Below are positions 47,744-53,430 of a stretch of DNA of 64,000 bases, piece after piece. The translations under genes were made by a program, and so were the position numbers. The stretch lies in assembly GCF_055900595.2 (NCBI RefSeq), contig NZ_CM148325.1. One strand, 5' to 3'. The notes beneath the pieces were generated by a model that ran no database searches, was not told the origin of the DNA, and saw only the letters and a list, made by a program, of their open reading frames with translations. How positions within the stretch are numbered: position 1 is the stretch's first letter; each line of letters opens with the position of its first letter.

Positions 47744-48670
47744 ATGAATTATTCTTTAAAGCAATTAAAGGTTTTCGTCACAGTAGCGCAGGAGAAAAGT
47801 TTTAGTCGTGCAGGAGAGCGTATCGGCCTGAGCCAGTCGGCAGTGAGTCACAGTGTGAAGGAGCTGGAAAATCATACTGGTGTTCGCCTGCTGGACAGAA
47901 CCACGCGTGAAGTGGTGCTTACAGATGCAGGGCAGCAGTTGGCTTTGCGTCTTGAGCGACTGCTGGATGAACTTAACAGCACGTTGCGCGATACCGGGCG
48001 TATGGGGCAACAACTGAGCGGAAAAGTTCGGGTCGCTGCCAGCCAGACCATTTCCGCGCATCTTATTCCGCAATGCATTGCTGAAAGCCATCGCCGCTAT
48101 CCAGATATTCAGTTTGTCCTGCACGATCGTCCGCAGCAGTGGGTGATGGAAAGTATTCGCCAGGGAGATGTCGATTTTGGCATCGTCATCGATCCAGGCC
48201 CAGTGGGCGATCTGCAATGTGAAGCGATTCTTTCCGAGCCTTTCTTTCTGCTTTGCCATCGCGATAGCGCTTTGGCCGTGGAAGATTATGTACCCTGGCA
48301 GGCATTACAGGGAGCGAAATTGGTGTTGCAGGATTACGCGTCAGGCAGCCGACCGCTGATTGACGCAGCGCTGACGCGCAATGGTATTCAGGCGAATATT
48401 GTGCAGGAGATTGGTCATCCGGCGACGCTGTTCCCGATGGTAGCCGCAGGCATCGGCATCAGTATTCTTCCCGCACTGGCGCTACCATTGCCTGAAGGTA
48501 GCCCACTGGTGGTAAAGCGCATTACGCCGGTGGTTGAACGCCAGTTGATGCTGGTGCGCAGGAAGAACCGTTCACTTTCCACCGCCGCTGAAGCGTTATG
48601 GGACGTAGTACGAGACCAGGGCAATGCGCTAATGGCTGGGCGGGAAGGGGATCCGTTGTATCAGATATAG
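47744..48670 (+). CDS. yfeR: LysR-family transcriptional regulator YfeR
   Basis: 308-aa ORF with N-terminal LysR HTH; divergent from yfeH. Confidence 0.88.
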
Positions 48671-48708
48671 AGTGAATTCATACTGCCGGGAGCTCCGGCA
48701 GTAATCAA

Positions 48709-49473
48709 TCAGAAATTAAATTTGATGGAGTAGATTATCGCATCCTGGTAAAAATCTTCGCCCAGTTTGTCATCCGCATAACGATACTGAATCCCTGTGG
48801 TGATGTGTGAAGTTGCATTCCACCAAAGTGCGACGGCACCGTTCAGACCTTCTTTGCCGCCATTACCTGCCGCGTAGGTGGCATCACGATCAAACTCGTA
48901 CTCGTTCCAGTTGGTGAGGGTGAATTTCTCACTGCCCAGCATAAAGCTGTAACCTGCAACCCAACCGGCGACATAACCGTTATCGCCGGTATAATAGGTT
49001 TGGTCTGTATAGCGTTTTGCAAAGAACGGTTTGAACCACCAACCGCTGCCGGTGAAATTGTAGCCGATCCCGTAAAGGAACATATCGTCATGGAAATTCA
49101 CACGATTCGCAGAACCGTAGGTGCCATACGCATGCAAGTAGAGATTAAATCCGGTGTCACCCAGGTAAATACGGTTGGTATTTTTAAATGTATAACGCTG
49201 CTCGCTACCCTGTTTATCATGACGATCATTATAAAAGTTTTCCCAGTCGAAGAACCCGTACATTTCTCCCCAACTAAAGTTAGCGCCGCCTTCCAGTTCC
49301 AGATATCCAAAATCATCTTTGTGTGATTTGGTCGACGATTTCTCAGTGGTTCTGCTAGTCCAGTCAAGATAATGAATACCTATATCAGCAAAACCGCCTT
49401 TAAATTCTGCATGGGATACTGCTGGTATCGCCAATACAAAAGAGAGTGTCAGAGTAAAAAGATGTTTTTTCAT
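48709..49473 (-). CDS. yfeN: outer-membrane beta-barrel protein YfeN
   Basis: 254-aa ORF with signal peptide and C-terminal aromatic residue (F); synteny. Confidence 0.85.
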   Translation of the reverse strand: MKKHLFTLTLSFVLAIPAVSHAEFKGGFADIGIHYLDWTSRTTEKSSTKSHKDDFGYLELEGGANFSWGEMYGFFDWENFYNDRHDKQGSEQRYTFKNTNRIYLGDTGFNLYLHAYGTYGSANRVNFHDDMFLYGIGYNFTGSGWWFKPFFAKRYTDQTYYTGDNGYVAGWVAGYSFMLGSEKFTLTNWNEYEFDRDATYAAGNGGKEGLNGAVALWWNATSHITTGIQYRYADDKLGEDFYQDAIIYSIKFNF

Positions 49474-49721
49474 AGCATAATTCCCTATGCCGATCGTTAT
49501 TAGTTGATTGCTTAATAAAAAGGTTGATTAAAAGCGGCATATTGTTAATGCAAGGGAAAGGAGAGTACCAATACAGTTTTTTCAGCCTATTAATAGTGAA
49601 AAAATATAAATATATCGATATCGAATAACTATCGGATACATGAAAAAAGTGTATTGGTATGAGGTAGGGCAATCTCGTTATAAAAAGGCGTTAGATTCCA
49701 CCCTACAAAAAAAGGATATAT

Positions 49722-50555
49722 ATGTATCAGGCTCAGTTTTCTCATAACCCACTGTATTGCGTAGATATTATCAAGACTTATAAACCTGATTTCACGCCAC
49801 GAGTGGCCTTTATTTTAGGTTCCGGGCTGGGCGCGCTGGCCGATCAGATTGAGAACGCGGTCGCAATTTCCTACGAAAAGCTGCCTGGGTTCCCGGTAAG
49901 TACCGTACACGGTCATGCGGGTGAGCTGGTGCTGGGTTATCTCCAGGGGGTGCCAGTGGCGTGCATGAAAGGTCGCGGACATTTCTACGAAGGTCGTGGG
50001 ATGACCATCATGACGGATGCAATCCGTACCTTTAAGTTGCTGGGCTGCGAGTTGCTGTTCTGCACCAATGCGGCTGGCTCACTGCATCCTGAAGTGGGGG
50101 CCGGCAGTCTGGTCGCATTGAAAGATCACATCAACACCATGCCGGGAACGCCGATGGTGGGTCTTAATGATGAACGTTTTGGTGAGCGCTTCTTCTCGCT
50201 GGCGAATGCCTACGATGCGGAATACCGCGCACTGTTACAAAAAGTGGCGAAAGAAGAGGGGTTCCCTCTGACGGAGGGCGTGTTCGTCTCGTATCCGGGG
50301 CCGAATTTCGAGACTGCGGCGGAAATTCGCATGATGCAAATTATTGGTGGGGATGTTGTTGGTATGTCTGTGGTGCCTGAGGTTATTTCAGCTCGCCATT
50401 GCGAACTTAAAGTCGTTGCGGTCTCTGCGATTACCAACATGGCGGAAGGTCTGAGTGACGTGAAGCTTTCTCATGCCCAAACGCTGGCAGCAGCGGAACT
50501 CTCAAAGCAAAACTTTATTAATCTTATTTGCGGCTTTCTGCGCAAAATTGCCTGA
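49722..50555 (+). CDS. xapA: xanthosine phosphorylase (purine nucleoside phosphorylase II)
   Basis: 277-aa PNP-family ORF; xapAB-xapR synteny. Confidence 0.92.
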   Translation: MYQAQFSHNPLYCVDIIKTYKPDFTPRVAFILGSGLGALADQIENAVAISYEKLPGFPVSTVHGHAGELVLGYLQGVPVACMKGRGHFYEGRGMTIMTDAIRTFKLLGCELLFCTNAAGSLHPEVGAGSLVALKDHINTMPGTPMVGLNDERFGERFFSLANAYDAEYRALLQKVAKEEGFPLTEGVFVSYPGPNFETAAEIRMMQIIGGDVVGMSVVPEVISARHCELKVVAVSAITNMAEGLSDVKLSHAQTLAAAELSKQNFINLICGFLRKIA

Positions 50556-50615
50556 GTAAAACAACAATAAACGGCCTCACTGAGTGAGGCCATATGATGC
50601 GACAAGGAAACGATT

Positions 50616-51872
50616 ATGAGCATCGCTTTGCGCTTAAAGGTAATGTCCTTTTTGCAATATTTTATCTGGGGGAGCTGGCTGGTTACCCTCGGTTCTTACA
50701 TGATTAATACCCTTCATTTCACCGGCGCTAATGTTGGCATGGTTTACAGTTCCAAAGGGATCGCCGCGATTATTATGCCTGGTATAATGGGGATCATCGC
50801 AGACAAATGGCTGCGTGCAGAACGTGCATACATGCTGTGTCACCTGGTGTGTGCGGGCGTACTTTTTTATGCGGCATCCGTAACTGATCCGGATATGATG
50901 TTTTGGGTGATGTTAGTCAATGCGATGGCGTTTATGCCGACTATTGCGTTATCGAACAGCGTCTCTTATTCCTGTCTTGCCCAGGCAGGGCTTGACCCGG
51001 TGACCGCTTTCCCGCCCATTCGCGTTTTTGGTACGGTGGGGTTCATTGTCGCCATGTGGGCAGTAAGCCTGCTGCATCTGGAATTGAGTAGTCTGCAACT
51101 GTATATCGCGTCCGGTGCGTCATTGCTGCTGTCGGCTTATGCGCTGACTTTGCCGAAGATTCCGGTTGCGGAGAAAAAAGCGACTACATCGCTTGCCAGC
51201 AAGCTGGGTCTGGATGCCTTCGTGCTGTTTAAAAATCCACGCATGGCTATCTTTTTCCTCTTCGCCATGATGCTGGGTGCGGTGCTGCAAATTACCAACG
51301 TTTTTGGCAACCCGTTCCTGCATGATTTCGCCCGTAATCCTGAGTTTGCTGATAGCTTCGTGGTGAAATATCCGTCCATTTTACTGTCAGTTTCACAGAT
51401 GGCTGAAGTCGGTTTCATTCTGACGATACCGTTCTTTTTGAAGCGTTTCGGTATTAAAACCGTCATGCTGATGAGTATGGTGGCGTGGACGCTGCGCTTT
51501 GGCTTCTTTGCCTATGGCGATCCATCACCAACCGGGTTTATTTTGCTGTTGCTGTCGATGATTGTTTACGGTTGTGCATTCGATTTCTTCAATATTTCTG
51601 GTTCGGTCTTTGTCGAACAGGAAGTTGATTCCAGCATTCGTGCCAGCGCCCAGGGCCTTTTTATGACGATGGTAAATGGCGTCGGCGCATGGGTTGGCTC
51701 GATTCTGAGCGGTATGGCAGTGGATTACTTCTCGGTGGATGGCGTAAAAGATTGGCATACCATTTGGCTGATGTTTGCAGGGTATGCTCTTTTCCTCGCA
51801 GTGATATTTTTCTTTGGGTTTAAATATAACCATGACCCTGAAAAGATAACGCATCGTTCAGTTACACATTAA
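50616..51872 (+). CDS. xapB: xanthosine:H+ symporter (MFS)
   Basis: 418-aa MFS ORF. Confidence 0.92.
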   Translation: MSIALRLKVMSFLQYFIWGSWLVTLGSYMINTLHFTGANVGMVYSSKGIAAIIMPGIMGIIADKWLRAERAYMLCHLVCAGVLFYAASVTDPDMMFWVMLVNAMAFMPTIALSNSVSYSCLAQAGLDPVTAFPPIRVFGTVGFIVAMWAVSLLHLELSSLQLYIASGASLLLSAYALTLPKIPVAEKKATTSLASKLGLDAFVLFKNPRMAIFFLFAMMLGAVLQITNVFGNPFLHDFARNPEFADSFVVKYPSILLSVSQMAEVGFILTIPFFLKRFGIKTVMLMSMVAWTLRFGFFAYGDPSPTGFILLLLSMIVYGCAFDFFNISGSVFVEQEVDSSIRASAQGLFMTMVNGVGAWVGSILSGMAVDYFSVDGVKDWHTIWLMFAGYALFLAVIFFFGFKYNHDPEKITHRSVTH

Positions 51873-51924
51873 AAGGATTCGCAGCTCTGTTCCTTGGGGC
51901 TGCTTTTATGATAAAGGTTAATTA

Positions 51925-52083
51925 GTGAAAGATATTTTATTTTCTTCTGGCGTTGGTTTTGGCATTGGTGCTTTGTTTACAATCGTGCGATTACCTATTC
52001 CTGTTCCAAATGTATTGCCGGGTATATTATCCATCGTGTTTATGTATGTCGGATATCTGGTGGTGAAATACTTTATGCCATGA
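51925..52083 (+). CDS. xapX: putative small hydrophobic protein (XapX-like), GTG start
   Basis: 52-codon ORF from GTG at 51925 to TGA at 52081-52083, absent from track (under 60 aa, non-ATG start); aagg SD-like about 9 nt upstream; product VKDILFSSGVGFGIGALFTIVRLPIPVPNVLPGILSIVFMYVGYLVVKYFMP is one predicted TM helix; location matches recalled XapX family downstream of xapB. Confidence 0.45.
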   Translation: MKDILFSSGVGFGIGALFTIVRLPIPVPNVLPGILSIVFMYVGYLVVKYFMP

Positions 52084-53008: not shown

Positions 53009-53078
53009 ATGAGAGGCACGGGAACTGCCGGACATAGTTGGTCTGATAAGCGAAGCGCATCAGGCAATTTCGCAAATT

Positions 53079-53135
53079 GCAGATAGCAAAAAAGCGCCTT
53101 TAGGGCGCTTTTTTACATTGGTGGGTCGTGCAGGA
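53079..53135. repeat. 57-bp direct repeat copy 1: terminator hairpin plus 3'-terminal fragment of tRNA-Lys
   Basis: Identical to 53235-53291 (gcagatagcaaaaaagcgcctttagggcgcttttttacattggtgggtcgtgcagga); diverges after tgcagga. Confidence 0.8.
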
Positions 53136-53234
53136 TGACTCGCTTCGCTCGCCCTTCGGGCCGTCGCCGCGAGCGGCTCCGTTGTTTCGCTGCGCTCAAC
53201 TCGAACCTGCTGCAGGTTCGAATCTTTGAGTATC

Positions 53235-53291
53235 GCAGATAGCAAAAAAGCGCCTTTAGGGCGCTTTTTTACATTGGTGGGTCGTGCAGGA
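53235..53291. repeat. 57-bp direct repeat copy 2 (terminator plus authentic 3' end of lysV)
   Basis: Identical to 53079-53135; overlaps the 3' 17 nt of lysV. Confidence 0.8.
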
Positions 53292-53350
53292 TTCGAACCT
53301 GCGACCAATTGATTAAAAGTCAACTGCTCTACCAACTGAGCTAACGACCC
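53275..53350 (-). tRNA. lysV: tRNA-Lys (anticodon UUU)
   Basis: Reverse complement reads GGGTCGTTAGCTCAGTTGGTAGAGCAGTTGACTTTTAATCAATTGGTCGCAGGTTCGAATCCTGCACGACCCACCA. Confidence 0.95.
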
Positions 53351-53354
53351 GAAG

Positions 53355-53430
53355 TGGTGGGTGATGACGGGATCGAACCGCCGACCCCCTCCTTGTAAGG
53401 GAGGTGCTCTCCCAGCTGAGCTAATCACCC
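53355..53430 (-). tRNA. valY: tRNA-Val (anticodon UAC)
   Basis: Reverse complement reads GGGTGATTAGCTCAGCTGGGAGAGCACCTCCCTTACAAGGAGGGGGTCGGCGGTTCGATCCCGTCATCACCCACCA. Confidence 0.93.

Follow-up and report, generated by a model that had tools for sequence, protein, structure and literature searches.

A conserved stem-loop in the xapA-xapB spacer, possibly a stability element of the sense-strand mRNA

The xapA-xapB spacer and its hairpin

The DNA analysed here is a stretch of 64,000 nucleotides (contig NZ_CM148325.1 of NCBI RefSeq assembly GCF_055900595.2), hereafter called the window. In its list of open reading frames, xapA, encoding a xanthosine phosphorylase of 277 amino acids, occupies positions 49722-50555 on the + strand and ends with a TGA stop codon at 50553-50555. 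The gene that follows on the same strand, at 50616-51872, was identified from the open reading frame list and the annotation of matching genomes as xapB, encoding a xanthosine/proton symporter of 418 amino acids. A 271-nt stretch that runs from the 3′ end of xapA through the spacer into xapB was 100% identical to E. coli FDAARGOS_536, where the two genes are annotated as xapA and xapB. The two genes are described as a single operon under activation by XapR and xanthosine (PMC7205307, citing Seeger 1995). Right behind xapB, a scan detected a terminator-like hairpin with a T-run at 51881-51913 on the + strand (GCAGCTCTGTTCCTTGGGGCTGC followed by TTTTATGATA), and this is likely the end of the xapAB transcript. 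Between xapB and xapR lies a 52-codon open reading frame (51925-52083, + strand), which is annotated in RefSeq as 'DUF1427 family protein' and gave no Pfam match at E ≤ 0.001. Two tRNA genes on the - strand (53278-53350 and 53358-53430) converge on the 3′ end of xapR. Beside them, at 53046-53430 on the - strand, are RtT-like repeats with perfect AAAAGCGC… hairpins; an RtT copy is annotated in a K-12 derivative, and none is annotated in the strain identical to the window.

The spacer between xapA and xapB is 60 nt long. A first-pass annotation had described a perfect palindrome at 50573-50591, 24 nt before xapB, and the sequence bore this out in every particular. The + strand hairpin reads GGCCTCAC-TGA-GTGAGGCC, with arms at 50573-50580 and 50584-50591 and a 3-nt loop at 50581-50583; it is a perfect 8-bp stem containing 6 G-C pairs. 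Seventeen nucleotides separate the xapA TGA from the hairpin, and 24 separate the hairpin from the xapB ATG. Between the stop codon and the hairpin is an A-rich tract, GTAAAACAACAATAAAC (50556-50572, + strand), and a Shine-Dalgarno-like AAGGAA of xapB is found at 50604-50609 on the same strand, with the hairpin 12 nt upstream and the ATG 6 nt downstream. The hairpin was recovered in both the minimum free energy (MFE) and the centroid fold of the spacer RNA, and the Shine-Dalgarno sequence lay outside the stem and was unpaired alongside the hairpin in the MFE fold. The + strand of a 91-nt region folded at -22.4 kcal/mol (z = -2.3 versus shuffles), and the 8-pair + strand stem-loop was assigned about -13.4 kcal/mol.

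No Rfam 15 family matched any sequence overlapping 50556-50615 at E-values up to 10; elsewhere in the scanned region, the matches were to tRNAs, to RtT, or by chance. A REP/BIME repeat was rejected, given that the window held a single match even when 3 mismatches were allowed; the hairpin sequence does not resemble the REP consensus. A processing site for RNase III was likewise rejected, inasmuch as RNase III substrates have stems far longer than 8 bp. A sigma-54 promoter in the spacer was also rejected as the explanation of the palindrome, because the relevant promoter, xapBp3, maps inside xapA at 50200-50216. The latter is a non-canonical sigma-54 promoter with the sequence TGGCAA-N6-ACGAT (PMC12316311). 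In the window, TGGCGAATGCCTACGAT at 50200-50216 on the + strand has one mismatch to xapBp3, and the K-12 allele matches it exactly; this site could be an internal xapB promoter that would transcribe through the hairpin. A match near xap in a paper on riboswitch entropy was found to lie on the xapB-xapR side, outside the xapA-xapB spacer. Searches of the available papers turned up no discussion of the xapA-xapB hairpin, which is apparently an undescribed member of a well-known kind.

Conservation and covariation of the stem-loop

One genome per species was scanned with XapA, yielding 80 loci, and E. coli alleles, including that of a K-12 derivative, were added. Every xapA-xapB spacer was extracted from these loci, and 41 loci were found to have spacers of 45-80 nt. 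Nearly all of these 41 contained a GC-rich hairpin (weakened in L002 and L015), situated 5-20 nt past the stop codon (typically 13-17 nt) and 14-29 nt before the ATG (typically 20-27 nt). The same position was occupied in Escherichia, Citrobacter, Klebsiella, Enterobacter, and about six further genera, but the stem sequences differed. The stem of this window, GGCCTCAC/GTGAGGCC, is also that of Pseudocitrobacter; the K-12 hairpin is GGCCTCG-CGGG-TGAGGCC, and another E. coli lineage (L003) has the stem ATGGCCTCG/CGGGGCCAT. The C. freundii and K. oxytoca groups and Silvania have GACCCCGC/GCGGGGTC, and Enterobacter has GTGGCCC/GGGCCAC. Further variants included GGCTCC/GGAGCC, AGCCCC/GGGGCT, CCGCTCCG/CGGGGCGG, and GCCTCGC/GCGGGGC, among others.

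Pairing was quantified in a MAFFT alignment of 37 distinct spacers, using an explicit 10-pair structure for the pair counts. Over the 10-pair helix, 82.6% of cells were paired, compared with just 34-51% in slid controls in which the partner was moved by 1-3 columns. Changes on both sides were found in 9 of the 10 pairs. Cells changed on both sides numbered 42, versus 14.4 ± 3.5 in column shuffles, and none of 500 shuffles reached as high a count. The AAGGA of xapB was nearly invariant in this alignment. When RNAalifold was run on the plain MAFFT alignment, only 4 pairs were recovered, because stems of unequal length are out of register there. Given that 9 of 10 pairs have changed on both sides, it is the structure rather than the sequence that is conserved; the stem-loop is therefore under selection and a functional RNA element. 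The conservation on which the first-pass annotation had let its proposal depend was thus found, with the stem-loop kept in about ten genera through compensatory changes.

These data also bear on whether the palindrome might have arisen by chance, or might be a protein-binding site at the DNA level with no role in RNA. In first-order Markov simulations, perfect stems that were 8 bp or longer and had 6 or more G/C bases in each arm arose at a rate of ~1.7 per 64 kb, so that one perfect GC-rich 8-bp stem per window is unremarkable; for one given 60-nt spacer, the expectation was ~0.002. What argues for function is that the stem is kept across genera through compensatory changes, not that it is rare. 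A genomic SELEX (gSELEX) peak for RpoN holoenzyme and NtrC has been placed at the xapB/xapA spacer (PMC8743547), as a DNA site would predict, but inspection by eye revealed no sigma-54-type GG-N10-GC element in the spacer. Moreover, the retention of complementarity while the sequence is replaced is the signature of a base-paired structure. We therefore give almost no credence to chance or to a DNA site, both of which are essentially excluded by the covariation.

Spacers outside the 45-80-nt class were organized in other ways. Those of Buttiauxella and Cedecea were 28-43 nt long and had no hairpin; since these spacers lack one, the hairpin is dispensable for the operon. Yersinia spacers were 140-160 nt long and had other structures. 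In Yersinia and Budvicia (L057-L073), the 140-160-nt spacer after the xapA homologue contained a long imperfect hairpin, e.g. GTCCCCTA…TAGGGGC, together with a second small conserved hairpin, CCTCTGAAGAGGG, and no T-run preceded the xapB-like gene. In Limnobaculum and Pragia (L019, L022, and L034), xapA-xapB spacers of 98-116 nt contained AGGAGACAG-N3-ATG followed by a short open frame, and a small ORF may replace the hairpin there. An IS1A insertion was observed near the 3′ end of xapA in E. coli strain E1 (L085, 744-1441), with the spacer hairpin and xapB intact.

The locus itself was found to be variable among E. coli genomes. When the window was compared with the K-12 derivative HST04, the yfeN-xapA-xapB stretch (48650-52050) contained mosaic patches just 83-93% identical, and the flanks (yfeR, most of xapR, and the tRNA genes) were 97-100% identical. 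A search of 5426 complete E. coli genomes with the 271-nt query gave at least 99% identity in 1275 records and 80-95% identity in about 2800; the query was absent or undetected in about 1350 of the 5426 genomes. The XapA of the window was 97% identical to that of Pseudocitrobacter vendiensis, versus 90% to one E. coli representative. This pattern suggests recombination or horizontal exchange at the xap locus.

Terminator signals and helix evidence on the two strands

In the window, the hairpin is followed on the + strand by ATATGATGCGAC, and a T-run is absent. The first-pass annotation's remark that no T-run is present thus held for the + strand, but it failed for the other strand, where a T-rich run follows the hairpin. 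Read on the - strand (50593 to 50571), the stem comprises 10 pairs, 6 of them G-C, with an extra A-U pair and a U·G pair, and then continues into GTTTATTGTTGTTTTAC. This T-run is the complement of the A-rich 17 nt that separate the xapA stop codon from the stem. A GC-rich stem-loop followed by a U-rich tract (TTATTGTTGT), the sequence features of an antisense terminator, was accordingly found on the - strand. In a consensus scan, the hairpin was the top terminator-like site of a 4-kb region, and it was flagged on the - strand only. The - strand fold of the region was -26.3 kcal/mol (z = -3.1), and the hairpin in the window was slightly more stable on the - strand than on the + strand (-15.7 versus -14.9 kcal/mol). 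The orthologous hairpins of Enterobacter and K-12 were also called on the - strand only, and that of Citrobacter werkmanii was called on both strands. Across distinct orthologous spacers, the 12 nt located 5′ of the hairpin contained 61% A, 22% T, and 5% G, in contrast to a balanced 3′ flank. When tails were scored in the manner of TransTermHP with a threshold of -2.5, the - strand tail in the window scored -3.37, within the top 4% of all window positions. Scores of -2.5 or below were obtained on the - strand in 31 of the 41 loci versus 16 of 41 on the + strand, and Enterobacter, E. albertii, and L003 had - strand scores reaching -4.5 to -6.0.

The strand asymmetry of the flanks, the rank of the - strand site in the region, and its recurrence among orthologues are all in keeping with a terminator of antisense transcription, a reading that we consider possible but rather unlikely. 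It holds that the hairpin and its T-rich tail GUUUAUUGUUGUUUU stop xapB-antisense transcription before it reaches xapA and its promoter, and that the sense mRNA merely tolerates a hairpin lacking U residues. Antisense transcription does enter the far (xapR) end of the locus, because a Rho termination region has been mapped antisense to xapR at K-12 position 2521597 (Adams 2021, Supplementary file 2). From its position, we infer that this region marks read-through of the highly transcribed valU-lysV tRNA operon, which converges on xapR and whose tRNA genes occupy 53278-53430 on the - strand of the window. However, it is at the xapR end only that antisense transcription is documented, and read-through from the tRNA operon would have to survive as 2.5 kb of untranslated antisense RNA without being terminated by Rho. 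The curated K-12 Term-seq table (Adams 2021; LB and M63 glucose) contained no antisense transcript and no 3′ end at xapA or xapB on either strand. Because the operon is uninduced in those media, this absence is silent on sense ends, and it counts weakly against an abundant antisense RNA. The TRS supplements, which were also searched for RNA ends, gave no match.

Nor did the scan detect a consensus - strand promoter within xapB. Matches reached just 8 of 12 positions, at +43 and elsewhere. The weak, putative promoter element at +43 consists of a -10 sequence TAAAAT (50658-50663, ending 43 nt into xapB) and a -35 sequence GTAACC with a 16-nt spacer. It occupies the same position in most genera examined, yet it lies within conserved coding sequence. 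If this element were active, the hairpin could terminate a cis-antisense RNA of ~90 nt covering the start codon and Shine-Dalgarno sequence of xapB, that is, a dedicated antisense regulator of transporter synthesis. We regard such a regulator as very improbable.

A different picture emerged from the + strand tails of certain lineages. In the C. freundii and K. oxytoca groups, which mainly account for the passing + strand scores, the hairpin is followed by TTACTTTTTT or TTACTTTAAT and was flagged as a + strand terminator; Silvania carries …GGGGTCATTTTTTG. Carrying a + strand T-run, the hairpins of the C. freundii and K. oxytoca groups look bidirectional. Such tails would suit a leaky forward terminator, i.e. 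an attenuator that stops a fraction of polymerases after xapA, so that, in E. coli as well, xapB would be transcribed less than xapA. The upstream A-tract fits this reading too, since canonical terminators frequently include one. In the window, however, the + strand tail ATATGATG has 3 T in 8 positions and scored -2.27 against the threshold of -2.5; together with the tails of K-12 (AAATGATG) and Enterobacter (ACACTGCG), it fell in the range of -1.7 to -2.3, and all three were unflagged. The stem-loop itself has the form of an intrinsic terminator (at least 5 pairs and a loop of 3-8 nt), but the U-rich 3′ tract is missing on the sense strand, and of the two tracts of a bidirectional terminator (A-tract 5′ and U-tract 3′), the A-tract alone is present in the window. 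Moreover, the essential U-tract is less conserved than the optional A-tract. Partial attenuation of xapB, as raised in the first-pass annotation, is thus weakly supported in this genome, in that the + strand tail AUAUGAUG fails as a terminator tail in the window and in K-12. Taken as a general account, a leaky forward terminator seems doubtful to us; it is plausible for Citrobacter and Klebsiella and poorly supported for E. coli.

The helix, in contrast to the flanks, favoured the sense RNA. G·U pairs in the + strand stem, which correspond to C·A mismatches on the - strand, were found in L003, L002, L032, L052, L054, and L051, and the reverse was found in L036 only. These mismatches tell against termination on the - strand in the lineages concerned. 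The mean difference dG(+) minus dG(-) was -0.5 kcal/mol (Wilcoxon p = 0.016, with lineages that are not independent). The + strand loops were GCCA, GCGA, GUCA, and GUGA (GNNA/GNRA-type) in Enterobacter and CUUG in Citrobacter and Klebsiella, both of which are stable tetraloop classes. The wobble pairs and loop types thus favour a structure formed in sense RNA, and the strand evidence from flanks and helix runs in opposite directions.

A paralogous gene cluster provided a further comparison. Its products are a XapA-like phosphorylase (68-70% identity), an MFS_1 transporter of 399-401 amino acids, and a LysR regulator, and xapB is absent; the order of enzyme, transporter, and regulator is the same as at xap. 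The cluster was found in L056 and L059-L080 (e.g. L060, 2971-6053), including Kluyvera, Citrobacter, Yokenella, Lelliottia, Pluralibacter, and others. Its spacer contains a hairpin, GGCGGG…CCCGCC or GACGGA…TCCGTC, located 11-13 nt past the stop codon and abutting the Shine-Dalgarno sequence (A/T/C)GGAGA. A T-rich run was absent on both strands. The + strand again contained G·U pairs (L066, L070, L071, L079, and L080), and L079 had a UUCG loop. Because the paralogue keeps a hairpin at the same place that cannot terminate in either direction, a role in the sense mRNA is favoured, and the antisense-terminator explanation is weakened correspondingly.

The paralogue also raised the question of whether the hairpin serves the downstream gene. 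Its stem abuts the Shine-Dalgarno sequence (…GCCCGCC AGGAGA), suggesting a link to initiation of that gene; in the window, the stem is immediately preceded by a single-stranded A/U-rich tract, and the xapB Shine-Dalgarno sequence is left unpaired by the hairpin. After endonuclease cleavage in the A-rich tract, the hairpin might become a 5′-terminal stem-loop protecting xapB mRNA, or it might shield the ribosome-binding site of xapB from RNA folding and moving ribosomes upstream. The spacing argues otherwise. Hairpin and start codon are separated by ~24 nt in Escherichia, by 14-27 nt in other lineages, and by ~13 nt in the paralogue, whereas the separation from the stop codon is more constant, at about 11-17 nt. 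We therefore consider a role on the xapB side improbable.

A sense-strand stability element and its relatives

The explanation that we tentatively prefer, and to which we give nearly an even chance, is that the sense-strand stem-loop blocks 3′ exonucleases and stabilizes the xapA portion of the operon mRNA, and that it causes little termination in E. coli. As to its kind, the hairpin would most likely be an ordinary within-operon mRNA stability element, with nothing new about it. XapR with xanthosine would give rise to a single transcript across xapA, the spacer, and xapB. The 8-bp GC-rich stem would fold about 17 nt beyond the xapA stop codon, just far enough downstream to escape the footprint of a terminating ribosome, and it would leave the ribosome-binding site of xapB free. 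With no U-tract in E. coli, RNA polymerase would mostly continue into xapB; such read-through is expected because the + strand tail falls short of a terminator tail in the window, K-12, and Enterobacter. Should the transcript be cleaved, or end early, downstream of the stem, 3′-to-5′ exonucleases would stall at the stem base. The xapA segment would then outlive the xapB segment, and the soluble enzyme would exceed the membrane transporter. In the C. freundii and K. oxytoca groups, where the U-run is kept, the hairpin would probably also terminate some transcripts, and the A-rich 5′ flank would make it a canonical terminator for any antisense transcription.

The covariation, the spacing, and the G·U asymmetry place a structure under sense-RNA selection just 3′ of the upstream cistron, which is what characterizes the class of stabilizing stem-loops. 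Of the stability or processing element put forward in the first-pass annotation, the part that stands is a functional sense-strand RNA element consistent with stability, in view of the covariation, the wobble asymmetry, and the loop types. The A-rich, G-poor 5′ flank (61% A), which is better conserved than the 3′ flank, goes unexplained by a pure stability hairpin, and for this reason the antisense-terminator reading stays alive. The two readings are compatible and not mutually exclusive.

If the stem-loop sets the ratio of XapA to XapB, the operon would be another case in which within-operon stoichiometry, here of a soluble enzyme and a membrane transporter, is set post-transcriptionally. The xap circuit has been modelled as a bistable xanthosine switch (PMC7205307), for which the XapA:XapB ratio is important. 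The comparative series, in addition, amounts to a natural experiment on the evolution of terminator direction, as tails are found on both sides in Citrobacter and Klebsiella, on the antisense side alone in Escherichia and Enterobacter, and on neither in the paralogous operon. To a specialist, neither would come as a surprise.

Among known systems, intrinsic terminators, including bidirectional ones, share with the xap hairpin a GC-rich stem of 7-10 bp, a loop of 3-6 nt, and an A-rich 5′ flank. The likeness extends to the T-rich tail on the - strand and to the T-runs on both sides in the Citrobacter and Klebsiella orthologues. Unlike them, the xap hairpin lacks the defining U-tract on the sense strand here, and it lies inside an operon whose downstream gene needs to be transcribed. 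A second relative is the intergenic terminator-like site between lacZ and lacY of the lac operon, which Murakawa et al. reportedly described in 1991 and which is said to give a discrete mRNA species of the upstream gene and reduced expression of the distal gene. Both structures lie between the enzyme and permease genes of an inducible catabolic operon; there is no sequence relationship between them, however, and a like effect in xapAB is a prediction.

Intercistronic stem-loops that stabilize mRNA are exemplified by the REP hairpins between malE and malF in E. coli and by the hairpins of the Rhodobacter puf operon. As in those systems, the first of two co-transcribed cistrons is followed immediately at xap by a stable GC-rich stem-loop without a U-tract. 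Here too, a soluble protein is encoded upstream and a membrane protein downstream, and a barrier to 3′ exonucleases would be expected. The xap hairpin differs from REP elements in being single-copy and locus-specific and from the puf hairpins in being much shorter, and its effect on mRNA stability is a predicted one.
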